From: Patescibacteria group bacterium
GTDB lineage: Bacteria > Patescibacteriota > Minisyncoccia > Phycocordibacterales > UBA918
Assembly: GCA_019745315.1 (NCBI GenBank)
Contig: JAIETH010000002.1
Location: 98,306 to 162,305, forward strand
Direction of reading: 5' to 3'
DNA: 64,000 nucleotides
Positions 19,678-45,570 of the stretch are shown in pieces. Position 1 is the first letter of the stretch, and each line of letters opens with the position of its first letter. The position numbers and the translations under genes were made by a program. The notes under the pieces are model-generated. The model saw nothing but the letters and a program-made list of their open reading frames with translations. It had not been told where the DNA came from and searched no databases.

Positions 19678-21501
19678 ATGTTCAAATTCTTGCAAAACGA
19701 GTACAGACTATACCTTTCCCATCAAAGACGCCGTGATGCTTTTTTTATATGGATTCAAAAGAGTCTTCACGAAAAATCAGTGGTCTATGTAAAAGATGTG
19801 CAGTTATGGGGTACTCAAATATATAGCGTAGAAAAAGGTAGCGCCAAGAGAATACGCCAAGAGAATCAAATAGACTATATATTACGCACCCCTCACGAAG
19901 TAGTTGAAGAAATTAGATCTCATGAATGGTCTATGATTTTTAAAACACCAGTTTTAGAAATATGGAAAAAAACAAGTGTACGCACTAAATATGTATTCGA
20001 TACTGAGCTTAGTAAAGATGAAATGAGCTCTTTATCGAAGTCAGTACGCCTTATGCTCAAGGAGTATCTAGAAACCCACAAACGTCCTCATCACCCATTT
20101 CTTCAGAATGCTAAATTTAGCAAATCATATGGCGTCGATATAGGTTTGTGGGTATCGGGGAAAATGCATGGATCAAAGATATCTTTCAAAAATACCTTGC
20201 GAGAAAGCTTGGTTGAAGCCCTCATGGCGTCTGCCACCGATGAACGCTTTAAGGCGTTTACACTTAACGATTTACCAAACACGATCATTGAAATTTCTAT
20301 ACTTTCAACATTGCACATCCCTCTCAGAAAAGAAGAGATTGCATCTCACCAAATCTATTTTGATATGGGTTATGTTGCTCAAAAACATGGCAAGCCCGTA
20401 GGTTGGTATATACCAATGGTTTTCAATGATATGACCCACTTCAAAAGCTTTAGTGACTTTACAGAAAGCCTTGTTTTTAAAAAAGCGACACTCCCTGACA
20501 GGTCTTCTTTAGATGTAGATATCAACGTGTTTACGGTACACAACTTTATTGAGTCCGCTAACCACTCTGGCACACTACCACTTCAAGGTCCTATTCCCCT
20601 ATACACTCAAATAAATACTTCTGACCTATTCCAGCGTACTGCTGAGTGGATTATTCAAAATACGCACACAGATGGATATATAGAACCCGTAACTACACAA
20701 CCACCTAGAGAAATTGCGCTTGACGTAGTGCGGCAGATGTTTACCGCATATGCATTAGCGGCATATAGCATCATTACACTAAACAACGGAGGTCTGGCAG
20801 CTGCTAGAAAAATTGCATTATTCGCTCATTCGCATATCCCTCATATAACAAACGAGAATCAATCGCTCCTTGCAGAAATATATTACGCCCTCTATCTTGA
20901 TGTACTTGGTGAAAAAAAACTAGCATCCGCCATATGCACTCTTGTCAGCAAATCTATTTCTGAAAAGACAGATACTATCACTCTGTCGCAATTTACCATC
21001 TTAAGCACAAGAGTAACCCCCCATAAACTTGAAGAAATATCTAAATATATAGCAATTCTTTTAAAGCGCTTTAAACACTCACAGGAACACGCCTCTTTAG
21101 CAGAATACGCTGAACTTTTACCACTCACCAAAAAATATAATGAAGTGATTTACCCATCCATCTCTCGCTGGTACATCTCGCTCCAGCATGAATTAGGTTA
21201 TTTCCCTAACAAAAAAAATGATGGTTTTTACTACACCAGAGGGACTGGAAAAGTACTAGAGGCATGCGCAGCAAGTGGTGACTTCACAGAAGAAGTCAAA
21301 AAGGGTCTTGTGTGGCTTGCGCGCTCTCAATATACAGACGATACGCTGTACCACATACCAACACGCGAACGAGGGCGATATCGTGGAGGATTCCGCCACG
21401 ATATCTTTAATCGAGATGCTTGGGTCGACTCAGCAGGCCACGCACTACTGACTGGCGTATATTTATTAAAAAATCAGCTTAATACGTCTTTGAAACAATA
21501 G
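19678..21501 (+). CDS. Hypothetical protein (607 aa), no motif recognised
   Basis: long ORF with normal codon use, unrecognised. Confidence 0.45.
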   Translation: MFKFLQNEYRLYLSHQRRRDAFFIWIQKSLHEKSVVYVKDVQLWGTQIYSVEKGSAKRIRQENQIDYILRTPHEVVEEIRSHEWSMIFKTPVLEIWKKTSVRTKYVFDTELSKDEMSSLSKSVRLMLKEYLETHKRPHHPFLQNAKFSKSYGVDIGLWVSGKMHGSKISFKNTLRESLVEALMASATDERFKAFTLNDLPNTIIEISILSTLHIPLRKEEIASHQIYFDMGYVAQKHGKPVGWYIPMVFNDMTHFKSFSDFTESLVFKKATLPDRSSLDVDINVFTVHNFIESANHSGTLPLQGPIPLYTQINTSDLFQRTAEWIIQNTHTDGYIEPVTTQPPREIALDVVRQMFTAYALAAYSIITLNNGGLAAARKIALFAHSHIPHITNENQSLLAEIYYALYLDVLGEKKLASAICTLVSKSISEKTDTITLSQFTILSTRVTPHKLEEISKYIAILLKRFKHSQEHASLAEYAELLPLTKKYNEVIYPSISRWYISLQHELGYFPNKKNDGFYYTRGTGKVLEACAASGDFTEEVKKGLVWLARSQYTDDTLYHIPTRERGRYRGGFRHDIFNRDAWVDSAGHALLTGVYLLKNQLNTSLKQ

Positions 21502-23075
21502 ATTTCATTAGCAAATGTTGTTACGAAAACTAAGTTGTCTTTAAATAAAACAGGGTTGGTGATACGTTCTGAAACAATCTGACTGGCATGTATAGCGCCC
21601 GTCTCACTATTACATATATATAACATCCCATCATTACTCCCAACATATACTCTATTTTTTTGCACTACCGGGGAGGAAAATATTCTTCCTTCTGTCTCTC
21701 TTTCCCATACAATGGTCTTTTTCTCTAGATCAATACAATATATGTATTTATCTAGAGAAGTCACATACGCACGAGAACCCACTACGCATGGCGTTGCATG
21801 AAGCCACTCCGCAACAGGAATTTCAAAACGCATCTTCCCAGATAATACAGACAGAGAAACGAGTAATCCTTTTTGTGTCGAAAATAGCACACCCCTTTCT
21901 TCGTCATACACAGATCCTGCATCCTCAACGCCGTCAACTTTTTGAGACCACATAGTCTTTCCTGAGTTTACTTGCAAGCAATGTACCACGCCATCAGAGC
22001 CTTGAAATATAAGGCTATCTGAAACCTGTGTGAAATTACCAGACACAGCGCCAGCAACCTGTCGCTCCCATACTATCTCCCTTCGTGACAAGGAATACCC
22101 TATTATGGCAGAGCGGTACAAAGGACCACCAACCTTCACAGCACAGCACAAAATATCTCCTTTAATTACTGGAGCTGATGTAATCCTCTCTCCAAAAGAT
22201 TCTTTATATAAAATTTTACCTTTGAGATCTAGCACGTACAAAGAACCGTTTATACTCCCCACGTAAAGTCGATCTCCATGGAGAAGTAAGTCGGTAAAGG
22301 TTGCCTTCTTTTTGCGAACACGCCACATCAACAACTTGCTCCATAGCACCTTTCCTGTTCCAGTATCAATACACCATATATATCCAGAGTCTGAGGTTGC
22401 ATACAAAAACTCCCCAAAAAGTACTGGCTGGGATCTCTTTTCTACTAAGGGAAAGTGTGGTTTTACTGGACCAAAATACCACATGCGATCTAAAGTCTTT
22501 TTTTGCTGACCTCTACTTGCTTTTAAAGCTAGATCTTCCAATGAAAAGAGTGAATAAATTTTAATTCCACGTTCAGTAAAAAAAGAATATGCAGAATCAT
22601 CAAAAAAACGCACAATAGCAAAGATCGCATAGACCCTCTTTCCCTCTTTTTCAAGAATATGAACCTGTTTCTCAAAACTTGCCCCCGTATTCAAAACATC
22701 ATCGACAAGCACGATAGGCAAATCGGTAACAATTCCCTCTATTTGCTTTGACTCTCCCTTTTTTTTGCGTGACTTACGAATATAAAAACCTGACGCATTT
22801 TCTTCTTTCATCACACACGCTGTGATAATAGGAAGAGACGCGGACTCAAGTCCACCAATCTGTATTTGGCTTCCCTCACCCAAAACTTTCCAAAAAAGAC
22901 TTGCGACCGCCTCTAAAAAGGCTTTTTCAAAAAGAATGTTCCTGAAATCAAAAAAAAATGCTATCTGGGAATGTTGGAAACTTAGAAGTGAATCTTTATA
23001 CCTTTCCCTATCAAAATAGGCTTTTTCCAAAATACACTTTTTAACATATTCCCGCATATCTTTCATATAAAACAT
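21474..23075 (-). CDS. Fusion protein: an N-terminal type-I phosphoribosyltransferase domain and a C-terminal PQQ-like beta-propeller repeat domain
   Basis: PRTase PRPP-binding loop IVLVDDVLNTGASF within an OPRT-like N-terminus. About 7 repeats follow of the form ...LY[AVC]GSxDGxLYxLDxxTGxxxWxxx..., typical of PQQ/BamB-like propellers. Confidence 0.6.
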   Translation of the reverse strand: MFYMKDMREYVKKCILEKAYFDRERYKDSLLSFQHSQIAFFFDFRNILFEKAFLEAVASLFWKVLGEGSQIQIGGLESASLPIITACVMKEENASGFYIRKSRKKKGESKQIEGIVTDLPIVLVDDVLNTGASFEKQVHILEKEGKRVYAIFAIVRFFDDSAYSFFTERGIKIYSLFSLEDLALKASRGQQKKTLDRMWYFGPVKPHFPLVEKRSQPVLFGEFLYATSDSGYIWCIDTGTGKVLWSKLLMWRVRKKKATFTDLLLHGDRLYVGSINGSLYVLDLKGKILYKESFGERITSAPVIKGDILCCAVKVGGPLYRSAIIGYSLSRREIVWERQVAGAVSGNFTQVSDSLIFQGSDGVVHCLQVNSGKTMWSQKVDGVEDAGSVYDEERGVLFSTQKGLLVSLSVLSGKMRFEIPVAEWLHATPCVVGSRAYVTSLDKYIYCIDLEKKTIVWERETEGRIFSSPVVQKNRVYVGSNDGMLYICNSETGAIHASQIVSERITNPVLFKDNLVFVTTFANEIYCFKDVLS

Positions 23076-23105
23076 ACTGTACTATATATTGATATAGAAC
23101 GTAAT

Positions 23106-23567
23106 ATGAATTTATTTTTTAAAAATCTTATGACACAACCTGCCATCACCACAGGACTCACAGTACTTATTACAGCCCTAGTAGTATCTTGCGCAATATA
23201 CCTCACGCCCCTTAAGCACCTCAATATCATTGAGCCTACCATCAATGATATACCAGCAACAGACTTCCAAGAGCTATACACTCAAAATAAAGATGAATAC
23301 CTCTTTATCGATGTACGATCTCCTCAGGCATATGCAGATGGACATGCCGAAGGATCTATCAATATACCCCTCCATGAGTTTTACAATCAGCGCACTTTCT
23401 TTCCCAAGAAAGGAAAAGAAATTATACTTATCTGTAGTGGTGGAGTCGCTTCTGGTGTTGCATACAGCTACCTAGAGCATTATGGATTCTTCAACATGAA
23501 GCGCATAGAAGGCGGCATAGAGTCTTGGAGAGCGTCAGAGTTACCTATGGTGTATAAAAGTGAGTAA
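23106..23567 (+). CDS. Rhodanese-domain sulfurtransferase, membrane-anchored
   Basis: FIDVRSPQAYADGHAEGSINIP...ICSGGVASGVA gives the active-site Cys loop; N-terminal transmembrane segment. Confidence 0.75.
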   Translation: MNLFFKNLMTQPAITTGLTVLITALVVSCAIYLTPLKHLNIIEPTINDIPATDFQELYTQNKDEYLFIDVRSPQAYADGHAEGSINIPLHEFYNQRTFFPKKGKEIILICSGGVASGVAYSYLEHYGFFNMKRIEGGIESWRASELPMVYKSE

Positions 23568-23592
23568 ATAATTACTGTTAAAATTCAAAATT

Positions 23593-23841
23593 ATGAGCGA
23601 GCAAAGAAAAAAAGTTAGTCGATTCATGCGGTCTTTTGTATACGGGGGTATATTTTTTATGGTTACCTATATAACCTCTTTGCCTGTTTTTTCTAGAAAC
23701 TTCTCAAATCAAGCTCCCGTTATTCCTTCAGCACTTGCTGATATTCCCTCAGATAGCTATATTCCTCCAACTAGCGATGGTGACGGCTCTTGTGACGGTA
23801 GCTCTGACGCCCCAAGTGACTGCAGCGATAGTCCTGAGTAA
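23593..23841 (+). CDS. Small membrane/secreted protein with an acidic Asp/Ser/Cys-rich tail, hypothetical
   Basis: 82 aa, a single transmembrane segment; DGDGSCDGSSDAPSDCSDSPE tail. Confidence 0.35.
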   Translation: MSEQRKKVSRFMRSFVYGGIFFMVTYITSLPVFSRNFSNQAPVIPSALADIPSDSYIPPTSDGDGSCDGSSDAPSDCSDSPE

Positions 23842-23852
23842 TTTTTAAAATC

Positions 23853-24953
23853 ATGTCTACAACAAAAACCTTATATATATTACTAGGAATACTTACTATC
23901 ATTTTAGCAGGACTTTCATATTACTTTCTACGTCACACAGAAAAAGATTCTTCTCCGACCCCTGAAAAAGGAAGCATAGAAGAACTATATTCTGAAAGAC
24001 AAGGAAGTACATTCCTGATTGCAAACACGGCATTTAATGCTCGTCTTTACAACCCTGACTCACGACCACTCCTAGAGCAATCGCTCCTTGAGGCAACCTC
24101 ACCCATCCAGGAGGCACATATTAAATACAAAATCGCCCTTACGTACACTTACGAAAACCCGACTCGAGCGGTTGAGCTTATGAAAGAGATTGCAGCAAAT
24201 GCAACATATCCTTCTCAACAAAAAGCATACGCGCTCCAGCATATATTCAGAATGTACAGTAGCCTTGTTTCAGGTCAAATTCCTTTAGCAAAAATATTTG
24301 AAGGAGATCCTTACCAGTCATTTTACACACAAGGAGATACCCCTCTTTCTTTAAAGAAGTTTCACGAATACACACTTTCTTTTGGAGAAAGTCCAATAAG
24401 CACAGCCGAGCTTGCTATTTGGTATGCTGATGAGGTTGCAAATAACGCAGACCTCTCTCAGTCAGAGAAAGAGAATTATGTAGTTCTTGCAAAAGAATTT
24501 ATAGCAACTTCTGAAAAGTATGTGGATGAAAAGAGTGAAGTGATGAACGACAAAGAGCTTATACCTAAAACTCTCGTAACGCTTGCGTCCGCATATGGTT
24601 TTCTTGCGCAGGCAAATATTGAACCTTACCGTAGCAACTATGGAGATATGTTCATAAGAGCTATTACTGTGAGCGATCTTGGCAACACCTATCAGAGCAA
24701 TGGAGCTCGTGATGCATACGCATACTTCTCTCTTTCACTCAAAGATGAAGCTGAGTGGGCGCGAGCACAAGTACTTTTTGATGAACTCATAGATAACATT
24801 GATTCATTTGGAACCATGAAGGCTGTATACATGAGAAGACAGCTGAATCCATCTGACTATCGAGATCGTACCGTATTTGTTGCAAATGAATATTCCAAGT
24901 TTAAGGATTTCTTGATAACACTCGGGTGGACAGAAGAAGACTTTGCCCGCTAA
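23853..24953 (+). CDS. Hypothetical membrane-anchored protein
   Basis: 366 aa, N-terminal transmembrane segment, helical. Confidence 0.45.
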   Translation: MSTTKTLYILLGILTIILAGLSYYFLRHTEKDSSPTPEKGSIEELYSERQGSTFLIANTAFNARLYNPDSRPLLEQSLLEATSPIQEAHIKYKIALTYTYENPTRAVELMKEIAANATYPSQQKAYALQHIFRMYSSLVSGQIPLAKIFEGDPYQSFYTQGDTPLSLKKFHEYTLSFGESPISTAELAIWYADEVANNADLSQSEKENYVVLAKEFIATSEKYVDEKSEVMNDKELIPKTLVTLASAYGFLAQANIEPYRSNYGDMFIRAITVSDLGNTYQSNGARDAYAYFSLSLKDEAEWARAQVLFDELIDNIDSFGTMKAVYMRRQLNPSDYRDRTVFVANEYSKFKDFLITLGWTEEDFAR

Positions 24954-24959
24954 AATAAA

Positions 24960-25655
24960 ATGCTTCAATACACCAAATATATATCGAGACATACCGTACT
25001 CGCCTCTTCTCTGGCCCTATTACTCGTACTTGTTTCCAGTTATATATATATTGAAAAAGAAAGAAGTACTTTACAGGACGACGCTGAACAGAAACAAATA
25101 GAGACTAATAAAAAGCTACTCTTACTTCCCACAAAAAACGATGTGGTTATTAACCCTGGCAATAAGATCACAATAGTCGTCTACGAAGACACGGACTGCA
25201 GGTTCTGTAGAGAGTATGAACATATACTTGACTCTGTCGCACAAAAGAACCCCGACGTTGTTAGTCTTTACTTTCGATATAAACTACTCCCAATCTACAG
25301 ACACTCCCGAGTAGAGGCTGAGCTTTTAGAGTGTGTAAAAAAAATAAACACCCCAGCGTACTCTGACTTTAAAAAAGATCTTTTCAGTATCAACTCTTCT
25401 GAAAATCTTGATCTTGAAAAGTTACTGTCTATGGCATATATGTATGCCGATAAAAATACACTGCGTACGTGCTCTGAAGACACAGAAGCGGGGAATACTG
25501 TTCGAGATATTGAAGCTACTGCCTCTATTCTTGGTGTAACCAAAGTACCTTATACTTTTATATTTAGCGAAACATCTCCCCTCATTACTCTTGTAGGCGT
25601 TCAATCTGAAAGCGCCCTAAAACAGATTATTGAAAACATACAAACATATGAATAG
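24960..25655 (+). CDS. DsbA-like thioredoxin-fold thiol:disulfide oxidoreductase, membrane-anchored
   Basis: YEDTDCRFCREY CxxC active site; N-terminal transmembrane segment. Confidence 0.6.
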   Translation: MLQYTKYISRHTVLASSLALLLVLVSSYIYIEKERSTLQDDAEQKQIETNKKLLLLPTKNDVVINPGNKITIVVYEDTDCRFCREYEHILDSVAQKNPDVVSLYFRYKLLPIYRHSRVEAELLECVKKINTPAYSDFKKDLFSINSSENLDLEKLLSMAYMYADKNTLRTCSEDTEAGNTVRDIEATASILGVTKVPYTFIFSETSPLITLVGVQSESALKQIIENIQTYE

Positions 25656-26133
25656 ACGGATCAGGCTAGCAGCATTCTTTTCAGTTGTTTTTTTAACTAC
25701 ACTCTATTTTTTTTCACTGATTGCAAACGGATCCTCTACCATTACGACACTCTCAAGCCCTCTTCCCTTTTTGCTTAAAATACATCTTTTTTTTCAAGCT
25801 CCCTATCTTACGTATTTAAATACTTCTTTATTAGCGTTTTTTATTTTTTTGGTTAATATTTTGCTAACCTCAATCTATATATTCCAAATACGCTATAAAC
25901 TAGAAATCGTTCGGGCACTACGCTCAGCATACGGATTATCTGGATCTTTTTTAAGCATACTGAGTGTTGGGTGTGTTGCATGCGGCTCTTTTATTACACC
26001 AACCGCGCTCTTGCTGGGGCTAGGCATCCCCTTTTCTGCTCTCTCACCTCTCACGTTAGGTGTTGGACTTTTTGGTACAGGATTACTTATACTAGGAAAT
26101 ATTGTCCTTTATCGACACATACGACCCCTGTAG
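25630..26133 (+). CDS. Polytopic membrane protein with an intramembrane CxxC (GCVACGS). A possible DsbB/VKOR-type redox partner of the upstream DsbA-like protein.
   Basis: 167 aa, 4-5 transmembrane segments, CxxC in a transmembrane segment; overlaps the upstream gene by 26 nt. Confidence 0.35.
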   Translation: MKTYKHMNRRIRLAAFFSVVFLTTLYFFSLIANGSSTITTLSSPLPFLLKIHLFFQAPYLTYLNTSLLAFFIFLVNILLTSIYIFQIRYKLEIVRALRSAYGLSGSFLSILSVGCVACGSFITPTALLLGLGIPFSALSPLTLGVGLFGTGLLILGNIVLYRHIRPL

Positions 26134-26145
26134 CGCCACGCATGC

Positions 26146-26826
26146 ATGAACCAATTTCTTGGAAACAATACACGCGTTATTCTCATGCCTGGAGGCAGCG
26201 GGGTTTTAGGAAATGCGCTACACGATCTTCTTGATAAGGAGGAATTTTTCTTTATCAACATAAGCAAAAAGACTCCGCTTAAGGGAGAGAATGTACACAA
26301 TTACTATTGCGATCTACGTGTAACAAACCTTGAAAAGATAGTTTCCAATATCGCCAACATAACGCCACGACTAGACTTTATAGTAAATGCTGCTTACTCC
26401 CACGACTTTAGATCTGTTACTAAACTTGAAAAAAATATCTTTCTTGAGGAAGTCTATCTCGATTCATACGTACCAATAAAACTCAGCCTCTTGTGTGCTG
26501 AACATTTTTGGTCTCCTATAGATAAATCTTATAACATTGAAACAGGTCGAACAGTGATAAACATATCAAGCGGAGCGTCACTTGGAAGAACGCAACGCCC
26601 CGAACTTGCTTCATACGGAGCAGCAAAGGCAGCGCTCAACATACTAACAAGCTATCTTCACGATGAATTATGGAGCAATTATGGTGTTTCTGCACACATA
26701 CTAACCCCAGGAAGCTTTTCAGATAAAAATACTCTAACTCAAACCGCCAATACCATTGCTGGGCTCATCGGATCAAAAGAGAGTGGTATAATTGATCCCT
26801 ATGTCGACATTTCTCGAAAGATTTAA
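26146..26826 (+). CDS. Short-chain dehydrogenase/reductase (SDR) family oxidoreductase
   Basis: GGSGVLGNAL Rossmann motif; SGAS...YGAAKAA catalytic Ser-Tyr-Lys. Confidence 0.8.
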   Translation: MNQFLGNNTRVILMPGGSGVLGNALHDLLDKEEFFFINISKKTPLKGENVHNYYCDLRVTNLEKIVSNIANITPRLDFIVNAAYSHDFRSVTKLEKNIFLEEVYLDSYVPIKLSLLCAEHFWSPIDKSYNIETGRTVINISSGASLGRTQRPELASYGAAKAALNILTSYLHDELWSNYGVSAHILTPGSFSDKNTLTQTANTIAGLIGSKESGIIDPYVDISRKI

Positions 26827-27610
26827 AACAACCCTTGAAAAGAAATATCTTGCCACACAAGAATCAGTTGATCTTGATACATATATACAAAATAAAAAAA
26901 TAGAAATAACACAAAGCCCCTTCCCTCATCTGACGGCGGACAATTTTTTTAACAACGAGATACATTCAGAAATAAAAAAGTACTTTAGTAGTGTATTTTC
27001 ACGAGGGCTTGTAGAAAATCAAGACCCAAACTACTTTAAACCTTTTATATATAAAAATTCTTCTCGCGAATACGATGGATATCTGTACACACCTCGACAC
27101 AACGAGGACGCTATATTAAAGACTTTTTTTAGTAATACGTGGAATTTATTTTTCTCAAATCTTTTTTCTCAACCTACTGGTATTTGTACATCGCTTGCGC
27201 TTCACTACCATCCTCCGGGTGACAAAACCGGGTTTGTTCATCATGATTTTGCTCCAAAATGGTTTTCTGCACTCGACACAGCAGGAAATAACATGCTGTA
27301 TCGAGATCGATCAGAGCCAGTTGGCATAAATCTCACAAAACAAATGCGTGCAATAACGCTGATTTATTATATTGATTTAGATAAAAATGTATGGAAAGAA
27401 GGGGATGGTGGAGAGACAGGAATTTATGAAAAAAAAGACGGTGAGCCTGTTAAACTCATAACTCCCAAAGATAATAGATTATTTGCATTTCAAGTATCAC
27501 CTCACTCATTCCATGCATTTCAGGCAAATCAAAAGCCTCGTGCATCAATTATTCAATGGTTCCATATAGACCCTGCGTGGTGTGAAAAAAAGTATAAGAC
27601 GAAATCATAG
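26792..27610 (+). CDS. Putative 2-oxoglutarate/Fe(II)-dependent oxygenase-like protein
   Basis: A spacing like HxD...H is present (FVHHDF ... SPHSFHAF). No clear homolog can be named from sequence alone. Confidence 0.35.
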   Translation: MIPMSTFLERFKTTLEKKYLATQESVDLDTYIQNKKIEITQSPFPHLTADNFFNNEIHSEIKKYFSSVFSRGLVENQDPNYFKPFIYKNSSREYDGYLYTPRHNEDAILKTFFSNTWNLFFSNLFSQPTGICTSLALHYHPPGDKTGFVHHDFAPKWFSALDTAGNNMLYRDRSEPVGINLTKQMRAITLIYYIDLDKNVWKEGDGGETGIYEKKDGEPVKLITPKDNRLFAFQVSPHSFHAFQANQKPRASIIQWFHIDPAWCEKKYKTKS

Positions 27611-27661
27611 ATAGAAAAAAGGCTGCGGCTTTCAAGCAGCAACCTTCTAGAATCTTCTGGA

Positions 27662-28228
27662 TCACCGGGAGGGCGCAATCTCCACCCTGGAAGCCGTGAT
27701 CTGGAGAATGGGGCCATGACGCCCGTCCGGCATCCTGCCGGGGGGCATGAACTGCCTCATCTCGAGCGCCACACCCGACAGCGCACCCGACGTGACGATC
27801 GTCGCCTCCCCTGTCCGCGGAATCGACGAGCCGCCAAGACCGTCAAGGCATCGAACCCTCGCGACCTGGAGGCTCATGCCGGCCACCATACGTTCCTCAC
27901 GTCCGAGAAGCTCGCAGTCGCGCACCTCGCGCGACGCCCGGTTCTCGAAGTAGTCCTGGTAGCGACAGGTAGAGAAGCCTTCATTCCATCGCTTCCCCAC
28001 CTCCAGACTGTCCGGCGGCAAGTAGCAGGAGAAGAGCAGCCCCCCCGCTTCTTCTTGGCGACCAGGTCCCGTATTGATGCCCGGACGGAGATTCTCGCGA
28101 TCGTACATGACGACCATAGCCCGAGCTTCTGGGTTGCGCGAAGAAACGGGACGGGAATCATTCCCTCCCGTGACACACCCCCCAAGAATGATTGCTGCCG
28201 CAAGGAGCGGACCGATTGACTGCCTCAT
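27662..28228 (-). CDS. Lipoprotein of unknown function encoded in a sharply high-GC island. Start taken at MRQSIGPLLAAAIILGGC.
   Basis: Signal peptide plus lipobox ILGGC. GC content is well over 60% across 27645-28270 against a low-GC background. The antisense Arg-rich ORF is an artefact. Confidence 0.55.
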   Translation of the reverse strand: MRQSIGPLLAAAIILGGCVTGGNDSRPVSSRNPEARAMVVMYDRENLRPGINTGPGRQEEAGGLLFSCYLPPDSLEVGKRWNEGFSTCRYQDYFENRASREVRDCELLGREERMVAGMSLQVARVRCLDGLGGSSIPRTGEATIVTSGALSGVALEMRQFMPPGRMPDGRHGPILQITASRVEIAPSR

Positions 28229-28321
28229 CTTTCGAAGTCCTCCATTTTTCAGCAACACGATCGTCACCGAAATCTAAAAGGACTATACCATGCTCACAAT
28301 TTTTGTCAAAAAAATATTTAC

Positions 28322-29212
28322 TTACCCGATATGAGTATCTCCTAGCATTTCTGTTCTGGTGACATAGGTGTGCCCTGGACGTGCCGCAACAAACTTAACT
28401 TCTGGATTCATAAAACGCATAGCCCAATCAAACTCTTCTTCAACTACAGCGCTCGGGCGAACATACTCCATCAAACCATTCCATACACTCTTGTTGTAAC
28501 AACCAATAAGTGAAACAACTTTTGTTTGTATTCTATGCGCCAAAAGAGCAGCTTGACCTGGGCTTAAACAGGATAATTCAGATATGGAACGATTTCCTTC
28601 CGCGTCTTTTATCTGTAGAGAATTTCCACTCGCATTTACAAATAACACATCTACATTCAAGTTATTAAATTTTTCCCAGACAGCATCCAATGTGAGCATC
28701 TGCCTATTGCGATTGCCTGCGGGATCGGCGATATGTAAAAGTGATCCTTGCTTACTAAATACATGCCACGCAAGATGTCCTGAGACTGTATGAGTATAGG
28801 CACGGATAGTCAAAGAACCTATAGTACAAGATTCCCCATCCACAAATCCTTGCGCGCGCACATCAAGCCCTTTTTCTCTAAAAAGAGAGTCTAAAATATC
28901 TTGATTGTCTTTTTTGAGCGTCGGATATCCAAACAGAGGTGATGAAGCGGTTGTTTTTGAAAAAATATCTAGTATATCTTTTTTGGGTGCATGGTGAGTA
29001 TGAAAATGGGAAACAAACACAGCGTCAACAGGCATATATTCCTCAACATTTGCATATCCTTGAGGCAACTGAAAATCAATAGTGCTGTGCCCCACAAGAC
29101 TTTCAAGAACAGGATACTTTACCGTACTGCTGGTAAACCATGGATCAATCAAAATATGAGTATCTCCTTCGCGAATACTTATTCCTGCATGTGCTATAAA
29201 CTGTATTTTCAT
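28322..29212 (-). CDS. Metallo-beta-lactamase-fold hydrolase
   Basis: FVSHFHTHHA is an HxHxDH-type motif, with a Gly/Asp-rich beta-sheet core. Confidence 0.7.
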   Translation of the reverse strand: MKIQFIAHAGISIREGDTHILIDPWFTSSTVKYPVLESLVGHSTIDFQLPQGYANVEEYMPVDAVFVSHFHTHHAPKKDILDIFSKTTASSPLFGYPTLKKDNQDILDSLFREKGLDVRAQGFVDGESCTIGSLTIRAYTHTVSGHLAWHVFSKQGSLLHIADPAGNRNRQMLTLDAVWEKFNNLNVDVLFVNASGNSLQIKDAEGNRSISELSCLSPGQAALLAHRIQTKVVSLIGCYNKSVWNGLMEYVRPSAVVEEEFDWAMRFMNPEVKFVAARPGHTYVTRTEMLGDTHIG

Positions 29213-29317
29213 AAGATAGGTATTATATCAAAAAATAATTTTAAGCGTCTTTGGCCAGTAAATAACCCTGGCTCAAGCTATTGTGTCAGAAAAAGCGTTC
29301 TGAGATATACTATAGGG

Positions 29318-30619
29318 ATGGACACGATACTTTATAATCTGAAGAAGCTCGTTCCCCACCAACTCTTGGCACTTCTTCGACCTCCCTATCATTATATACT
29401 CACGCTCTGTGGGGCAGTATTCTATGGCTTCCCTTCTCGTGAAATAACCGTTATTGGAGTTACGGGAACAAAAGGAAAATCAACGGTAACTGAGCTCATC
29501 GCCGCAATCTTTGAAGCCGATGGTAAGCGCACGGCTGTTGCGAGCACAATACGATTTAAGATCGGCGAACGGAGCGAACCAAACCTCTATAAGATGACTA
29601 TGCCCGGACGATTTTTTATACAAAAATTTCTTCGTGATGCAGTCTCTGCTGGATGTACTGTTGCCATTGTCGAGATGACGAGCGAAGGAGCTCGTCAGTA
29701 CCGGCACAAGTTTATTGATCTTGATGCTCTGGTGTTCACCAACCTTTCTCCCGAGCATATAGAATCTCATGGGTCATTTGAGAAATACAAACAGGCAAAA
29801 CTATCGCTTGCTCATGCCCTCGAAGAATCCCGAAAACGACCTCGCCGTATCATTGCAAACGTTGATGACATACACGGGAAAGACTTCTTATTTATTGATG
29901 TTGAGAAAAAAATACCATACTCACTACAAGACCCAGAGCTTCATACACTTACAAAAGATGGCGTGAGCGTTGTGTTTAATGGAATCACAATCCGCACACC
30001 ACTTGTTGGTCTCTTTAATGTATATAACGTAATTGCAGCTATTTCTTGTGCTGAATCTTTTGGCATACCTCTCAAAATTATTGAGCGCGCCTTAGGAAGC
30101 CTCGCACCCATTAAAGGTCGTGTTGAAAAAATATCAACTCCTTCTGGCGCATCAAAAAATATTACTGCAGTTGTTGATTACGCCCATACACCAGACTCGC
30201 TTGAGAAACTCTATAAAGCTTTCAATGATATTCCGAAGATTTGCGTGCTGGGGAATACAGGAGGTGGACGCGATACATGGAAGCGACCAGAAATGGGTCG
30301 CATTGCTGGAGAATATTGTGATCATGTAGTGTTAACTGACGAAGACCCCTACGACGAAAATCCAAATCTTATTGTTGAAGCAATGAAAAATGGTATTACC
30401 GATCAAAACAAAGTGACTGTGATAATGGATCGTCGCGAAGCAATACGCCATGCGCTGCGCATTGCGCCCGATAAGTCCGTAGTTCTTATTAGCGGCAAAG
30501 GTACAGACCCATACATAATGGGACCTCGAAATACAAAAACTCCGTGGAGTGACGCCGAAACTGTTCGAGGAGAAATTGCATACCTTTTTCCAGTAGAATC
30601 ACGAAAACGCCATGGCTGA
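29318..30619 (+). CDS. murE: Mur ligase family protein, probably UDP-N-acetylmuramoyl-L-alanyl-D-glutamate--2,6-diaminopimelate ligase (MurE-like). Start taken at MDTILYN.
   Basis: VIGVTGTKGKSTV P-loop; Mur ligase middle and C-terminal domains (DYAHTPDSL, GNTGGGRD). The upstream 109 codons of the listed ORF are antisense to the MBL gene. Confidence 0.75.
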   Translation: MDTILYNLKKLVPHQLLALLRPPYHYILTLCGAVFYGFPSREITVIGVTGTKGKSTVTELIAAIFEADGKRTAVASTIRFKIGERSEPNLYKMTMPGRFFIQKFLRDAVSAGCTVAIVEMTSEGARQYRHKFIDLDALVFTNLSPEHIESHGSFEKYKQAKLSLAHALEESRKRPRRIIANVDDIHGKDFLFIDVEKKIPYSLQDPELHTLTKDGVSVVFNGITIRTPLVGLFNVYNVIAAISCAESFGIPLKIIERALGSLAPIKGRVEKISTPSGASKNITAVVDYAHTPDSLEKLYKAFNDIPKICVLGNTGGGRDTWKRPEMGRIAGEYCDHVVLTDEDPYDENPNLIVEAMKNGITDQNKVTVIMDRREAIRHALRIAPDKSVVLISGKGTDPYIMGPRNTKTPWSDAETVRGEIAYLFPVESRKRHG

Positions 30620-31502: not shown

Positions 31503-31578
31503 TCCGCCCGTAGCTCAGTCGGTAGAGCAGCTCCCTTTTAAGGAGATGGTCGTAGGTTCAATTCCTACCGGGCGGACC
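31503..31578 (+). tRNA. tRNA-Lys (anticodon TTT) with encoded CCA
   Basis: CCGCCCG TA GCTC AGTCGGTA GAGC A GCTCC-CTTTTAA-GGAGA TGGTC GTAGG-TTCAATT-CCTAC CGGGCGG A CCA. Confidence 0.85.
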
Positions 31579-34946: not shown

Positions 34947-35412
34947 TATGTATGCCAAACACCTTAACGTTTCGCACCCCATCCCCCACAACAATAAAGT
35001 CTATATGGAGGGTTTCTTTGAGTGCGGCATGCATACGCTCAACCCATTCAACCACAACAAGAGAGTGCTCGCTACTAAGGATATTCTCTATATCAAGAGA
35101 ACGAAGCTCGCGAGCATCTTCAATGCGATACGCGTCCATGTGAATAAAACTGGCAAAATCAGGGTGTGTGGTTGTATATCGTTTTTGTATTACAAATGTA
35201 GGACTTGTTACGATTTCAGCAACTCCAAGAACTCGAGCAAGAGACTGACTAAATGTCGTTTTGCCTGCGCCTAAATCTCCAGAAATTCCACACACAGTCG
35301 CCCCTATCTTGGGACGGTGACGTAGAAGCATATCAAGAACCTCCGAAGCAAATATATCGACTTCTGCAAGGGTGATGTTTTTTTCTACGAGAAGAGATAG
35401 TGTTGGATCCAT
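34939..35412 (-). CDS. tsaE: tRNA threonylcarbamoyladenosine biosynthesis protein TsaE (YjeE P-loop ATPase)
   Basis: GDLGAGKTTF Walker A, SPTFVIQKRY; the start is uncertain (internal Met MDPTLS used). Confidence 0.75.
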   Translation of the reverse strand: MDPTLSLLVEKNITLAEVDIFASEVLDMLLRHRPKIGATVCGISGDLGAGKTTFSQSLARVLGVAEIVTSPTFVIQKRYTTTHPDFASFIHMDAYRIEDARELRSLDIENILSSEHSLVVVEWVERMHAALKETLHIDFIVVGDGVRNVKVFGIHND

Positions 35413-35509
35413 ATCAGAGAGAAGTATAGCAATAAATACACGGGGCGTCAGATACGAGAAACTGTTATTTTCCAACAAACAACCGTGTCGCTCGTGCTAC
35501 CATACAGAC

Positions 35510-37165
35510 ATGGCTCAATTTGACGATCTTTCCCATAAAGTATCTGAACTCTACCGCACAGAGGAAGAGGAGCTCATGAAAGCCCTCTCGGTGCGATATG
35601 GACACCAATACATAAATCTTATGGGTGTAGTGATAAACACCGAGGCATTACGACTTATAGACGAAAAAACCGCCAAAATAGCAGAGTGTGCTGTTTTTGC
35701 GCGAAGCGCCACCAAACTATCTATAGCAGTACGAAATCCTAATAAAAAAGAAACTGTCGACCTGCTTCAATCTCTCAAAGAGCGGAATTTTTCTACACAA
35801 ATTTTTATGGCTTCAACCGGGAGTCTTTCCCATGCATGGGAAAGATATCACGACGTCGTCCCTGCAACAGCGAGCGAAAAAGGTGTGCTTGGTATTACCT
35901 CAGCAGAAATTGCACATATGGCTGAGACACTTACCACCGTCGCGGATGTGACCACGACAGTAAATAACCTCCAAATTAGTGACGGGCATCGCAACGTGTC
36001 TACTATTCTTACCGCACTTTTGGGAGGAGCTCTTTCGCTTGGTGCGTCTGACCTTCATGTTGAACCCGAAGAAGACACCACCCGTATCCGCTATCGACTT
36101 GATGGAGCATTGTTTGATATTTGTACTGTAGATACCCATTCATACTCACTTATTCGTGCACGACTCAAGCTACTTGCAGGACTGAAGTTAAATATTACAA
36201 ATCAAGCGCAAGATGGCCGCTTTACTATCGATGTAGGCTCTAAGCAGTACGAGATACGTCTTTCTGCTATACCTGGCGCATACGGAGAATCTATTGTTAT
36301 GCGTTTTCTTGACCCATCAAGCATTCAAGTCAAAATTGAAGACTTTGGCATTAATGAATATTTACTCCCTATCATCCACCGCGAATTAAAACGACCTGAA
36401 GGAATGATAATCACAACAGGTCCGACAGGGTCTGGAAAAACAACAACACTCTATACATTTTTACAAATGGTACACAATTCTGAGGTCAAAATTATCACAC
36501 TTGAAGATCCTATTGAATATCATCTCGATGGCGTTGTGCAAACCCAGATTGCCGACAAGTATTCCTTTGCCAGCGGCTTACGTTCTATTCTGCGCCAAGA
36601 CCCTGATGTAATTCTTGTAGGAGAAATTCGAGACAGCGAAGTAGCTGAAACCGCAATGAATGCCGCACTCACAGGACACCTTGTCTTTTCAACGCTTCAC
36701 ACAAACAGCGCAGCGGCAGCGTTCCCACGACTCCGCGATCTCGGCATTGACCCACGAACAATGGGGAGCGGACTCCACTTGGTTCTTGCGCAACGCTTAG
36801 TCCGAAAACTATGCCTTACATGCAGAAAAGAACGAGCGCTCGAAGAATCTGAGCGTGAACTGTTTACTCATATATTAGAAACATATCCGACCCACGTGTC
36901 ACTTGAAAATGCTCAGGTATTTGAGCCTGTAGGATGTCCAGCATGCGGAGGAAGCGGATACAAAGGACGAATGGGTGTATATGAAGGCATTTGTATTGAC
37001 GAGCAGGTAAGCGAAGTTTTACTTTCGGATATGCGAGAGCGCGCCATCATTGAAGCGGCTCAGCCACAAAAAATCCCCTCTCTTAAGCAAGATGGGGTTA
37101 TGAAAGTCCTCTCTGGAATTACAGCTCTTTCTGAGCTTGAAAAAGTCGTTGATTTACATGGATAA
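35510..37165 (+). CDS. pilB: Type IV pilus assembly ATPase PilB / GspE-family secretion ATPase
   Basis: MAQFDDL... start; GPTGSGKTTT Walker A; Asp box; His box (TLHTNSAAAA); tetra-Cys zinc site CLTCRK...CPACGGSGYKGR. Confidence 0.9.
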   Translation: MAQFDDLSHKVSELYRTEEEELMKALSVRYGHQYINLMGVVINTEALRLIDEKTAKIAECAVFARSATKLSIAVRNPNKKETVDLLQSLKERNFSTQIFMASTGSLSHAWERYHDVVPATASEKGVLGITSAEIAHMAETLTTVADVTTTVNNLQISDGHRNVSTILTALLGGALSLGASDLHVEPEEDTTRIRYRLDGALFDICTVDTHSYSLIRARLKLLAGLKLNITNQAQDGRFTIDVGSKQYEIRLSAIPGAYGESIVMRFLDPSSIQVKIEDFGINEYLLPIIHRELKRPEGMIITTGPTGSGKTTTLYTFLQMVHNSEVKIITLEDPIEYHLDGVVQTQIADKYSFASGLRSILRQDPDVILVGEIRDSEVAETAMNAALTGHLVFSTLHTNSAAAAFPRLRDLGIDPRTMGSGLHLVLAQRLVRKLCLTCRKERALEESERELFTHILETYPTHVSLENAQVFEPVGCPACGGSGYKGRMGVYEGICIDEQVSEVLLSDMRERAIIEAAQPQKIPSLKQDGVMKVLSGITALSELEKVVDLHG

Positions 37166-43855: not shown

Positions 43856-45253
43856 TCACTTTAAAAGAGCACGAATCTGACCAAGTTCTTCTTCGAGGAG
43901 TGTATCCCCTTTTAAATCTTTTTTAATCTTTTCGCATGAGTGGATTACTGTAGTGTGATCTCTTCCTCCCATCTTTTGTCCGATGGCTGGGTACGATATT
44001 TGGAAATCTTCTCGAAGGATATACATAATGAGTTGTCGAGGCTTCACCACCTCTTTCCGACGAGTCTTCTCATAAATACTTTCAGGTTCAATATCAAAGA
44101 AGCGTGCTATTTTTTCAACAACATCTGCTACTGCAAGAGACTTACGTGGACGAGTGCTGTTTTTTATAAGAGATTTTACTTCGTCTATCTCAAGTGCGCG
44201 TCCAGAGAGCTGAGACTGACACATGATGGTGTTAAGTGCTCCTTCGAGCTCACGAATATTTCCCTCAATTGTTTGAGCAAGGTGTTCGATAACGCTCTCG
44301 GTAAGCATTATGTTGTTTTGTGCCGCCTTTGCACGAAGTATTGCTATGCGTGACTCAAAATCAGTGCGAGGTATATCAACAATCATTCCCTGCGCAAATC
44401 GTGACTGAAGACGCTCTTCCATGTTGTGCATAAGGCGCGGATGAACATCAGATGAAAACACAATCTGCTTGTTATTGTCGTGAAGCGCATTAAATAGATG
44501 AAAGAGCTCTTCTTGAGTTTTCTCCTTATTAGAGAGAAACTGCACATCGTCCATGATGAGTGTGTCGTACTGGCGGTACTTGTCCTTAAAGTTATTGGCG
44601 GTTCCGTTTTGAAGAGAGTTCATATAATCCACAGTAAAACGCTCGCTCGTGACGTAAAAAACTTTTTTCCCTTGTTTTTTAAGGTGGTTACCAATCGCTT
44701 GGATCAAGTGTGTCTTTCCGTGACCTGTAGGTCCATATATAAACAGTGGGTTGTAGGCTATTCCAGGCTCACGAGCAACTGTCTGAGCAGCTGCATGGGC
44801 AAGTTGATTAAATGGACCAACAACAAAACTCTGAAAGGTATATTTCGGATTAAGATTGTCGCTCTTATTTATGTAGTACTCCTCAAGAGGGAGCGCCGCA
44901 TTCACTGTTTGAGGCTTTACCTTATCTATTTTCTTGTCAGTGCGTGCAACAACCGTATATTCGACATTCCGCACATGGTGTGAAAGGTCGCGCAGTGTTT
45001 TTAGTATGAGGCTATGGAATTTATCGGAAAGCCAGTCACGTACAAACACACTTGGTACACCGAGGGTTATGGTCCCATCTTCGAAAGACACTATATGTGT
45101 ATCTCGGAACCACGTTTTAAAGTTAGCAGTTGATATTGAGAGCTCAATATTGACCAACGAATTGTCCCACAGCTGTTTTACATCAAGATATTCAGTACGA
45201 AGTGCATGTATTGAGGTTTGAGAAGAAGCATTCATACAAAAAGTCTTAAGCAT
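43856..45253 (-). CDS. dnaA: Chromosomal replication initiator DnaA. Start taken at MLKTFCMNASS, which is preceded by GGAGAG.
   Basis: GPTGHGKTHL Walker A, AAA+ box VII, C-terminal DnaA-box-binding HTH (YPAIGQKMGGRDHTTVIHSCEKI). The 94 upstream codons of the listed ORF fall in the AT-rich origin spacer. Confidence 0.9.
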   Translation of the reverse strand: MLKTFCMNASSQTSIHALRTEYLDVKQLWDNSLVNIELSISTANFKTWFRDTHIVSFEDGTITLGVPSVFVRDWLSDKFHSLILKTLRDLSHHVRNVEYTVVARTDKKIDKVKPQTVNAALPLEEYYINKSDNLNPKYTFQSFVVGPFNQLAHAAAQTVAREPGIAYNPLFIYGPTGHGKTHLIQAIGNHLKKQGKKVFYVTSERFTVDYMNSLQNGTANNFKDKYRQYDTLIMDDVQFLSNKEKTQEELFHLFNALHDNNKQIVFSSDVHPRLMHNMEERLQSRFAQGMIVDIPRTDFESRIAILRAKAAQNNIMLTESVIEHLAQTIEGNIRELEGALNTIMCQSQLSGRALEIDEVKSLIKNSTRPRKSLAVADVVEKIARFFDIEPESIYEKTRRKEVVKPRQLIMYILREDFQISYPAIGQKMGGRDHTTVIHSCEKIKKDLKGDTLLEEELGQIRALLK

Positions 45254-45432
45254 TATACTCTCCACAGTCTGCATGTAAACAGCTGAGCGTAAAAAATACA
45301 AAACTAGTGTGAAATAACGATATCCCACACCCAAAATAGATGACTGTGTACAACTCTGTGTATAGCTGTATATAAAAAAGCTCGTCAAGTACGGTGGTTG
45401 AAATATGTTTGTGTATGGTGTATTGTGTGCGC

Positions 45433-45570
45433 ATGTCAAAAAGAACCTATCAGCCAAAGAAGCGCAAGCGTGCAACCACCCACGGTTTCTTGGCGCGCAC
45501 AAAAACAGCAGGAGGAAAGGCTGTGCTTCAGGCACGTCGAAGAAAGGGACGAGCTAAATTAGCTGTCTAA
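45433..45570 (+). CDS. rpmH: 50S ribosomal protein L34
   Basis: [45 protein letters not shown], 45 aa. Below the ORF-track length cutoff, so not listed there. Confidence 0.95.

Follow-up and report, generated by a model that had tools for sequence, protein, structure and literature searches.

Within the window, the whole 64-kb stretch of patescibacterial DNA analysed here, one short GC-rich island stands out, and what it represents is an ordinary kind of feature, a probable horizontally acquired orphan gene, now well documented. In our judgment the island is probably a self-contained gene unit that was acquired from a high-GC lineage, has been maintained by selection, and encodes an exported, tethered lipoprotein. 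A preliminary description had reported a single-gene, high-GC island in lower-GC DNA that encodes a predicted lipoprotein lacking a recognizable domain, and both observations hold: G+C content reaches 61.3% across 27645–28270 against 43.6% for the whole window, and the minus strand carries, at 27662–28228, the 188-aa ORF with MRQSIGPLLAAAIILGGC, whose product matches no sequence in Pfam, NCBIfam or the PDB. The island is one complete minus-strand gene unit, with promoter, ribosome-binding site, open reading frame and terminator, and its features and immediate neighbors are laid out as follows.

26792–27610, plus strand: native 2OG-Fe(II) oxygenase gene, convergent with the island gene (Pfam 2OG-FeII_Oxy_3/_4).
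27615–27648, minus strand: intrinsic terminator, a GC-rich hairpin (AGAAGGUUGCUGC-UUGAAA-GCCGCAGCCUU) followed by U6.
27662–28228, minus strand: CDS of 188 aa, with predicted signal peptide, lipobox L-G-G-C (Cys18), tether and beta-rich domain.
27716–28219, plus strand: antisense Arg-rich ORF of 167 aa, a phantom.
28229–28281, minus strand: 5' leader, with the Shine-Dalgarno sequence GGAGG at 28243–28239, 10 nt upstream of the ATG.
28282–28309, minus strand: sigma-70-type promoter, TTGACA at 28309–28304, a 16-nt spacer and a TG-extended TATAGT at 28287–28282.
28322–29212, minus strand: native MBL-fold hydrolase gene, directly upstream of the island gene and in the same orientation (Pfam Lactamase_B_2/_3).

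Composition sets the island apart by several measures. Windows of 600 bp average a GC fraction of 0.436 (sd 0.033) and exceed 0.52 at a single peak, 0.618 at 27651 (z=5.5), with a sharp shift at either edge of the island; by tetranucleotide distance from the remainder of the window, the island ranks first among 191 windows of 650 bp (z=6.3). Sliding-window GC and tetranucleotide analysis, both proposed as checks in the preliminary description, agree in making the island the extreme. Once GC content is normalized the dinucleotide bias is only moderately atypical, being exceeded by 10 of the 191 windows. The coding sequence itself has a G+C content of 63.1% and GC1/GC2/GC3 values of 0.65/0.53/0.71, where host GC3 is 0.378±0.056. 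Its product carries 22 arginines to one lysine, giving an R/(R+K) of 0.957 against 0.49±0.13 in the host, and a GARP residue fraction of 0.38 against 0.24±0.04. The high-GC origin suggested at the outset is compatible with this codon usage and amino-acid composition, whose foreign look favors uptake from a high-GC lineage prior to the divergence of the sampled strains.

The expression signals are all in place. The promoter agrees with the consensus at 11 of 12 positions, has TG ahead of the −10 hexamer and lies in AT-rich intergenic DNA past the stop codon of the MBL gene. It is 100% identical in two contigs from other samples, L007 and L008, its hexamers are intact in two more, L010 and L011, and its A-tract does not vary in length between strains; the motif TTGACAAAAA occurs once in the 64-kb window. 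The GC-rich part of the leader begins at GTGACGATCG (28267–28258). At the other end, the terminator RNA folds at −20.1 kcal/mol (z=−2.7 versus shuffles), and the region is 98–100% identical in other strains. A match of this DNA to Rfam ar35, an alphaproteobacterial sRNA, reached 24 bits against a gathering score of 45, with 46 model positions missing, and was dismissed because it is mainly based on the terminator hairpin. Nor is the unit an integron gene cassette: its 3' hairpin is a plain terminator with U6 and lacks a GTTRRRY core, it has its own promoter, and no integron integrase occurs among the Pfam-annotated neighbors.

The start codon deserves comment, as the databases differ on it. 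NCBI annotates residues 38–188 (P0001, 151 aa, beginning at Met38), a protein without the signal peptide, while ENA calls all 188 aa (P0035). The upstream ATG at 28228 is favored by the GGAGG 10 nt before it, the promoter 54 nt upstream, and the ENA call. From that start the protein reads as a putative bacterial lipoprotein, a candidate Lgt/LspA substrate of the PROSITE PS51257 type: M-R-Q-S-I-G-P-LLAAAIIL, with Arg2 in the n-region, leads through a hydrophobic h-region to the lipobox and an invariant Cys18, after which a tether rich in Gly, Ser, Pro and Asn extends to about residue 36. In a strain about 95% identical the h-region remains hydrophobic (I13M, I14V, L15I), and the lipobox reads I-G-G-C in L010 in place of L-G-G-C, with Cys18 conserved. 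Unlike most bacterial lipoproteins, the protein has an uncommon Gly at −2, which falls outside the strict [LVI][ASTVI][GAS]-C consensus but is accepted by the broader PROSITE-style pattern; unlike members of known lipoprotein families, its mature part matches no Pfam or NCBIfam entry. Motif searches of the 64-kb window, translated in six frames, recovered neither Lgt nor LspA.

Judging from these motifs, the product would most likely cross the membrane through Sec, receive its lipid at Cys18 and be cut by signal peptidase II, ending up anchored on the outside of the cell membrane via a flexible linker of about 20 residues. Beyond the linker a small, beta-rich globular domain would carry two disulfide bonds: it holds four cysteines (68, 88, 105 and 127), and every Cys in the protein is conserved between the strains compared. 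Those disulfides could be formed by two proteins encoded 2 kb from the island, a DsbA-like Thioredoxin_4 protein (24960–25655) and a conserved CxxC membrane protein with a GC(V/A)ACGS motif (25630–26133). AlphaFold2 models the mature part mostly as beta strands (pLDDT 58). A binding or surface role may be more apt than a catalytic one; this functional statement is weak because the model is of low confidence and matches no known fold.

How the gene may have arrived can be sketched in outline. The ancestor of a species-level patescibacterial population would have acquired a single-gene unit of about 700 bp from a donor lineage with roughly 58–65% G+C, and the unit would since have been retained under purifying selection. 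This transfer is a reading of composition, as no donor or homologue was found. The junctions bear no integrase or transposase, tRNA or flanking direct repeats; the neighbors are metabolic, the nearest tRNA lies at 31504, the sole repeat flanking the island is an imperfect A-rich 11-mer (one mismatch), and no convincing target duplications or tandem repeats occur at the island. No close relative with the site empty turned up, and scanning metagenomes with the 2OG oxygenase gave only marine relatives 28% identical.

The gene nevertheless resembles the atypical acquired ORFans known as single-gene islets, being short, lineage-restricted, homologue-less and deviant in codon and amino-acid usage, and sitting between conserved genes with its own expression signals. 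It differs from typical islets in having no mobility genes, tRNA or repeats at its borders, and from typical ORFan islets in that purifying selection on it can be demonstrated and that it is fixed in populations about 5% apart. It is also GC-richer than its host, where acquired genes and ORFans tend to be AT-richer. A survey of horizontal transfer in groundwater-MAG Patescibacteria offers a further parallel, likewise describing single transferred genes in streamlined genomes, not very recent and probably from unsampled donors, but the survey needs a donor–recipient pair where the present case draws on composition with no donor homologue (PMC12455944).

The surroundings of the island are informative as to possible donors. 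Pfam confirms the SDR, 2OG oxygenase, MBL-fold hydrolase, rhodanese and DsbA-like genes named in the preliminary description, although the view of them as accessory does not stand in the sense of strain-specific, as the cluster recurs in relatives whose MBL hydrolase is 45–55% identical. That hydrolase has 32 homologues, of which the closest apart from itself is 55% identical, and the hydrolase gene served as the anchor for fetching related loci (L001–L006); the 2OG oxygenase gene has the lowest GC in the window (GC 0.358, GC3 0.278). GC content among relatives that share the MBL cluster spans 44% to 59%. For example, L004 is 58.6% GC, with a GC3 of 0.62–0.81 and an R/(R+K) of 0.67, and belongs to the same clade: its MBL hydrolase is 54% identical, and its 165-aa neighbor shares 77% identity with the one in L002. 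As a donor, an unrelated high-GC host is no more plausible than a high-GC member of this patescibacterial clade, and most individual transfers into Patescibacteria are reported to come from other Patescibacteria (PMC12455944). The window's 728-aa protein was considered as the YcaO protein seen in relatives, and is not YcaO.

The same loci raise a different account, in which the position beside the MBL/2OG/DsbA/rhodanese cluster acts as a cassette-like expression slot, a shared native promoter and leader being joined in each lineage to a different foreign, GC-rich gene for a small secreted protein, so that every lineage would have a surface protein of its own. In L001, two GC-rich signal-peptide genes (147 aa and 193 aa) adjoin the MBL gene, so that three unrelated genes of this kind, with the 188-aa gene of the window, occur at MBL in two lineages, with GC3 of 0.71–0.77 against 0.38 and about 0.49. 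L003 adds a fourth small secreted-protein gene (151 aa) in the slot. Each gene has its own strong promoter, each mature protein an even number of cysteines, and promoter and leader likeness links the window gene with both L001 genes, and L001 with L003. The window and the L001 upstream region share, in order and at identical spacing, TTGACAAAAA, 12 nt, the −10 hexamer and CCTT.TAG.TT...GTGACG.TCG, agreeing at 34 of 52 positions. This local alignment beats 2000 of 2000 shuffles and is the best blastn-short match among L001–L006; within it, the leader block CCTTTTAGATTTCGGTGACGATCG agrees with the leader of the L001 147-aa gene at 18 of 24 positions with the same spacing from the −35 element.

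Against such a slot, the sample comprises two or three lineages only, the similarity statistics are marginal (the leader match has an E of 0.03–0.04 against real sequence), and L002, L004 and L005 have ordinary genes at the equivalent position; searches revealed neither a recombination site or integrase nor flanking repeats or silent paralogous copies. The likeness between the window and L001 leaders is therefore best taken as suggestive only, and we consider it unlikely that the shared TTGACAAAAA ... CCTT.TAG.TT...GTGACG.TCG element drives unrelated disulfide-bonded secreted proteins or lipoproteins in each lineage, and the slot as a whole equally so. A search for the leader motif in viral contigs gave one match, inside a phage Hsp20 coding sequence, which we attribute to chance. 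The two L001 proteins found no match in a scan of the genome-contig collection, which is without this species and L001 (a scan with the MBL protein found no match either).

Should GC-rich genes for secreted proteins prove to recur beside the cluster, this would point to a preferred entry site for such genes; were the slot real, it would mean cassette-like renewal of surface proteins in ultra-small, host-dependent bacteria. The vsp, vlp and vsa loci of Mollicutes come to mind, where a reduced-genome, host-dependent bacterium likewise has small surface lipoprotein genes whose 5' promoter and leader seem more conserved than the coding part. The resemblance goes no further: the island gene is single-copy, with no paralogues, silent cassettes, tandem repeats, A-tract length variation or nearby recombinase, and is not a member of that class of variable surface lipoprotein locus.

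Shared upstream sequence could also be a relic of common descent. On this account the gene is ancient and vertically inherited, the window gene and the L001 147-aa gene descend from one ancestor, and their coding parts have diverged while promoter, leader and high GC were kept by selection or local bias. The presence of the L001 signal-peptide gene (GC 0.626, GC3 0.77) beside MBL and the equally spaced upstream match speak in its favor. However, the two proteins show no similarity (Smith-Waterman against shuffles, p=0.22; BLASTP E=3.4), and the window gene is constrained to much the same degree as MBL (pN/pS 0.19 versus 0.17), yet MBL keeps 55% identity. The genes also lie on opposite sides of MBL in different orientations, and the leader match is not only marginal but, in a 20-base version, extends to the unrelated phage Hsp20 gene. 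We regard common descent as rather improbable, and acquisition from a high-GC lineage remains our preferred reading.

Searches for homologues were extensive and bear directly on the donor. Among about 15 billion proteins in all, the island protein has no homologue: a word-indexed search of 5.8 billion returned near-identical copies only, and an exhaustive phmmer search of 1.84 billion representatives found nothing further at E<=0.001. Matches were likewise absent from JGI metagenome contigs, IMG/VR, phage tblastn, and plasmid blastn and tblastn; P0001, the 188-aa protein and the MBL protein had no record in exact-protein look-ups, no paralogue occurs in the 64-kb window or related loci, and no homologue occurs at the MBL loci L001–L006. 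The distribution is accordingly narrow, five contigs carrying the gene, and the loci L001–L006 yielded no orthologue of equally high GC that would mark the gene as ancestral.

These searches also speak to the idea that the bacterium took the gene from the high-GC cell on which it lives, for instance an actinobacterium. BLASTP matches in high-GC taxa had been predicted and did not appear among the 5.8 billion and 1.84 billion proteins, leaving an actinobacterial or host-derived origin without support. In its favor are the composition (63% GC, Arg-rich), the epibiotic lifestyle general in cultivated Patescibacteria, and the record of horizontal transfer into Saccharibacteria (PMC7427843), and nothing else. 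Yet no homologue turned up in any sequenced organism, the very well sampled Actinomycetota included, the plasmid tblastn was negative, and Actinomycetota are among the rarest donors to Patescibacteria, accounting for 1 of 131 transfer events (PMC12455944). A host-cell source is thus very improbable. A foreign lipoprotein with no relative among about 15 billion proteins is, for all that, a candidate for lineage-specific host interaction, given that attachment to host cells in these uncultivated epibionts is most likely mediated by surface proteins.

That the GC-rich stretch encodes protein at all follows from the pattern of substitution. The lipoprotein frame is under purifying selection. Compared with L009 and L010 together, its pN/pS is 0.19, while the other frames tested give 2.3–3.0, and of 22 differences to a strain about 95% identical 14 are synonymous in this frame, with only 2–3 synonymous in any other. 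Neighboring genes range from 0.03 to 0.17, the 2OG oxygenase having 0.026 and the MBL gene 0.17. Selection does not show in the N-terminal part, where codons 1–37 contain no synonymous difference: the strain differences there, four in L010 plus P27L in L007, are all non-synonymous. The Arg-rich antisense frame that the preliminary description called a phantom does exist (15.5% Arg) and behaves as non-coding, with 2 synonymous and 17 non-synonymous differences (pN/pS 3.0). No reading frame of the island other than that of the lipoprotein, the antisense included, has a Pfam match or a plasmid tblastn match.

It is therefore highly improbable that the stretch encodes a structured RNA or a gene on the opposite strand, or that its ORF arose by chance in GC-rich DNA poor in stop codons. 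Such a view could draw on the habit of GC-rich DNA to carry long ORFs in several frames and on a translation with no homologue or domain and low AlphaFold2 confidence, but beyond the pN/pS contrast it must contend with GC3 > GC1 > GC2 in the lipoprotein frame, a Shine-Dalgarno sequence and lipobox signal peptide at the first ATG, and the failure of the island to match any Rfam family at the gathering threshold.

Least credible of all is an assembly chimera, in which the assembler would have joined a piece of a high-GC genome into a patescibacterial contig: the metagenomic origin of the genome, the sharp edges and the ending of JGI contigs L009 and L010 inside the island, 52 bp apart, fit it and indicate a region that is hard to assemble, but an independent ENA assembly from another sample (L007) is collinear and gapless with window positions 25181–29912 at 98.67% identity, across both junctions, and, with 63 substitutions, represents a different consensus. 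At least one junction is also spanned by each of four further contigs from three other samples, L008 and L009 the 3' one and L008, L010 and L011 the 5' one, and the unit of promoter, Shine-Dalgarno sequence and terminator fits the intergenic space exactly. The chimeric join offered earlier as an alternative is refuted by these contigs, whose sequence differences exclude a shared origin in one contaminated read set. A sharp, single-gene GC spike in a CPR MAG need not, then, mean contamination or misassembly; here it is a fixed, selected gene, probably for a cell-surface protein.

The same contigs date the island relative to its carriers. Its copies in the five contigs are 93–99% identical to that of the window, those from two ENA samples at 98.7–99.4% and the JGI/Logan contigs at 93–95%, and feature by feature the island diverges as its flanks do, with a synonymous divergence (pS) of 0.11 where flanking genes have 0.08–0.20. 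The gene still looks acquired, as had been proposed, but calling the acquisition recent requires qualification: the island is common to populations about 5–6% diverged and its pS is like that of the flanks, which makes it older than that split.

The high-GC stretch at window positions 27645-28270 is a single gene unit on the minus strand. On one side it is bounded by the stop codon of a gene for an MBL-fold hydrolase (MBL), on the other by the end of a gene for a 2OG-Fe(II) oxygenase (2OG), which converges with it.

Gene unit and flanks (window coordinates)
28322-29212, minus: MBL-fold hydrolase gene, flank
28309-28282, minus: near-consensus sigma-70 promoter, TTGACA-16 nt-TATAGT with TG ahead of the -10 (11/12 positions)
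Upstream of 28228, minus: leader of ~50 nt in which GGAGG sits 10 nt ahead of the ATG (28228), read from sequence
28228 to 27662, minus: 188-codon ORF, from ORF and translation
27648-27615, minus: hairpin then U6, -20.1 kcal/mol
26792-27610, plus: 2OG gene, flank, convergent with the island gene

The protein's N-terminus, MRQSIGPLLAAAIILGGC, is a signal peptide that includes a lipobox-like LGGC. A stretch rich in Gly, Ser, Pro and Asn comes next and leads into a domain for which almost exclusively beta strands are predicted; its cysteines are at 68, 88, 105 and 127. NCBI annotates residues 38-188 only ('hypothetical protein K2X96_02460', MBX9906736.1, 151 aa), a Met38 start that leaves out the signal peptide and lipobox. 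Given the Shine-Dalgarno sequence, the distance to the promoter and the presence of a signal peptide, we prefer the upstream ATG as the probable start; the ENA gene call, which covers the full 188 residues, also favors it. A known RNA was considered as the island's identity and set aside, as no Rfam family matched at threshold; the 24-bit match to ar35 falls below it and rests mainly on the terminator hairpin.

Compositionally, the preliminary description of a high-GC single-gene island was accurate. The window averages 43.6% G+C, the island 61.3% and the ORF within it 63.1%. Across 600-bp sliding windows of the 64 kb (mean 0.436, sd 0.033), the highest value, 0.618 (z=5.5), belongs to the stretch from 27651, and the remainder never exceeds 0.52; at 50-bp resolution, the rise starts near 27626 and the fall is finished by about 28270. 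In tetranucleotide distance to the rest of the window the island exceeds all 191 other 650-bp windows (z=6.3), while a GC-normalized dinucleotide measure finds it only moderately unusual, with 10 of the 191 scoring higher. The evidence pointing to a foreign origin is compositional and operates at two levels. At codon third positions, GC3 is 0.70-0.71 versus 0.378±0.056 for 57 other window ORFs. At the level of amino acids, a signal independent of synonymous sites, the protein carries 22 Arg and a single Lys, giving R/(R+K) of 0.957 where the host has 0.49±0.13 (maximum 0.82), and its Gly+Ala+Arg+Pro fraction is 0.38 against 0.24±0.04. Such a bias needs long residence in a GC-rich genome, and cannot stem from the local AT-rich DNA. 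The lowest G+C of the window (0.36-0.40; GC3 0.28-0.35) belongs to the nearby DsbA-like, CxxC membrane protein, SDR and 2OG genes (24960-27610), which sharpens the island's contrast and hints at a separate compositional history for that part of the cluster.

A chimeric assembly join had been raised as an alternative source of this contrast, and it fails against copies from other samples. The protein's 90%-identity cluster supplied two further members from other sources, which led to five contigs from four other samples.

Contigs carrying near-identical copies of the island
L007, ENA ERZ27249650, 4732 bp: matches window 25181-29912, 98.67%, gapless
L008, ENA ERZ27249658: matches window 27545-29115, 99.4%
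L009, JGI 3300043334: matches window 22152-28017, 95.0%
L010, JGI 3300043334: matches window 28070-29611, 93.3%
L011, Logan ERR4869788: matches window 28209-29364, 93.6%

L007 runs gaplessly through both junctions. It carries 63 substitutions relative to the window and is therefore an independent consensus. The 3' junction is also crossed by L008 and L009, and the 5' junction by L008, L010 and L011. In each strain the island is as similar to the window as its flanks are: 99.3% versus 99.1-100% for L007 and L008, and 95.5-96.2% versus 93.2-97.4% for L009 and L010. The island is real, not an assembly artefact. Because island and flank identities agree, it was already present in the common ancestor of populations now ~5-6% diverged. 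L009 and L010 each break off within the GC-rich gene, their ends separated by 52 bp (window 28017-28070), although each enters from native sequence. These ends show that the region assembles poorly, and they suggest that coverage fell or that strains were heterogeneous over the high-GC DNA when it was assembled.

The same divergence allows coding status to be addressed, by setting the window against the strain of L009 and L010, which is about 95% identical to it. In the lipoprotein frame, 14 synonymous and 8 non-synonymous differences give a pN/pS of 0.19 (pS 0.11), alongside 0.03-0.17 (pS 0.08-0.20) for neighboring genes. Read in the Arg-rich antisense ORF of 167 aa, the same substitutions give 3.0, and in the remaining two minus-strand frames 2.3-2.4. 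This substitution pattern marks the minus-strand ORF as a genuine gene subject to purifying selection; the antisense ORF is a phantom, as had been proposed. Cysteine conservation in the protein is 5/5 across strains, and the three amino-acid differences of the closest strains (T20A, P27L and G50D) fall in the tether or first loop.

The searches pointed to no donor for the gene. It is absent from the corresponding loci of six relatives (L001-L006; MBL 42-55% identical). Matches in high-GC taxa had been anticipated, with an actinobacterial host as possible donor; neither finds support, because near-identical copies were all that came back from a word-indexed search of 5.8 billion proteins and from exhaustive phmmer against 1.84 billion representatives. 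Metagenome, viral, phage and plasmid searches yielded nothing, and Pfam, NCBIfam and PDB sequences no match. The donor could plausibly lie within the phylum. L004 (Logan SRR33673741 contig, 3634 bp) comes from the same clade: its MBL is 54% identical, and the neighboring 165-aa protein shares 77% identity with its L002 counterpart. At 58.6% G+C, with GC3 at 0.62-0.81 and an R/(R+K) of 0.67, it shows that G+C in the clade spans at least 44-59%. In a published survey (PMC12455944), most transfers into Patescibacteria had other Patescibacteria as donors. Looking for an integrase, a tRNA, a flanking duplication or tandem repeats at the island gave nothing, which counts against a classical island. 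Nor is it an integron cassette, as it has neither attC nor integrase and carries its own promoter, or a Mollicutes-type variable lipoprotein locus, being single copy, without repeats and with no promoter A-tract variation. On compositional grounds, the island gene is apparently a horizontally acquired, atypical orphan, a known kind of feature, encoding a probable lipoprotein. It is unusual in three respects only: the 20-point GC contrast, the lack of relatives, and the fact that its authenticity and constraint can be demonstrated from independent metagenomes.

Neither sequence-family nor structure searches matched the protein to a family or fold. Single-sequence AlphaFold2 models the mature part as a beta-rich domain (pLDDT 58), for which Foldseek against the PDB returned nothing at TM >0.3. 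The best-supported reading is generic: transcribed from its own strong promoter, the product would be exported by Sec and lipidated at Cys18, tethering outside the membrane a predicted beta domain held by two disulfides. The DsbA-like protein and CxxC membrane protein, encoded two kilobases away, together could supply oxidative folding. As to function, binding or a part played at the surface seems likelier than catalysis. The CxxC membrane protein (25630-26133, plus; 167 aa, multi-pass, conserved GC(V/A)ACGS motif) is conserved in L001 at 33% identity but lacks any Pfam or NCBIfam match, and is a candidate DsbB/VKOR-like partner. Its gene overlaps the end of the DsbA-like gene (24960-25655), which shows an in-frame length difference of 24 nt between the window and L009.

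One relative also carries GC-rich secreted-protein genes beside MBL. In L001 (GCA_021733405.1; MBL 55% identical; locus 49% G+C), small high-GC signal-peptide genes flank it on both sides, whereas GC3 of the other genes averages about 0.49.

Signal-peptide genes flanking MBL in L001
7421-7864, minus: 147-aa signal-peptide gene, GC 0.626, GC3 0.77
9003-9584, plus: 193-aa signal-peptide gene, GC 0.584, GC3 0.76

In L003 the same slot is occupied by a gene for a secreted protein of 151 aa. These three proteins and that of the window show no sequence resemblance to one another. Upstream, window 28258-28316 (minus) and L001 7855-7915 (minus; 147-aa gene) agree at 34/52 positions with identical spacing: TTGACAAAAA, 12 nt, the -10 hexamer, then CCTT.TAG.TT...GTGACG.TCG, in which GTGACG marks the start of GC-rich DNA in both. 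The alignment, the window intergenic region's best among L001-L006, beats 2000/2000 shuffles, but against real sequence its E is only about 0.03, which is marginal. The likeness is suggestive and unexplained: it could reflect a shared regulatory element, an old common gene origin or, improbably in our estimation, a preferred slot near MBL for incoming secreted-protein genes. A 20-base leader motif in an unrelated phage gene is a chance match.

The neighboring genes, earlier regarded as accessory, are not strain-specific. They recur together, in rearranged order, in L001, L002, L003, L005 and L006.

Recurring cluster, window 19678-29212
19678-21501: AMMECR1-domain protein
21474-23075: PQQ-type beta-propeller with phosphoribosyltransferase (PRTase) domain
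23106-23567: rhodanese
Rest of cluster: 366-aa protein, DsbA-like protein (thioredoxin fold), CxxC membrane protein, SDR, 2OG, MBL

YcaO joins the cluster in some relatives and lies nearby in L001, and L006 encodes a YcaO-nitroreductase fusion and a 55-aa ORF directly upstream of MBL; this hints at a pathway that modifies peptides (RiPP-like) or is related to sulfur. As a whole, the window looks like and is ordinary chromosome. It encodes a type II/IV secretion ATPase, dnaA and a TraG/VirB4-like P-loop ATPase of the sort found in type IV secretion systems of Patescibacteria (35372-37165, 43856-45535 and 50942-52756), together with PilM, UvrD, a class A PBP and DNA polymerase I.
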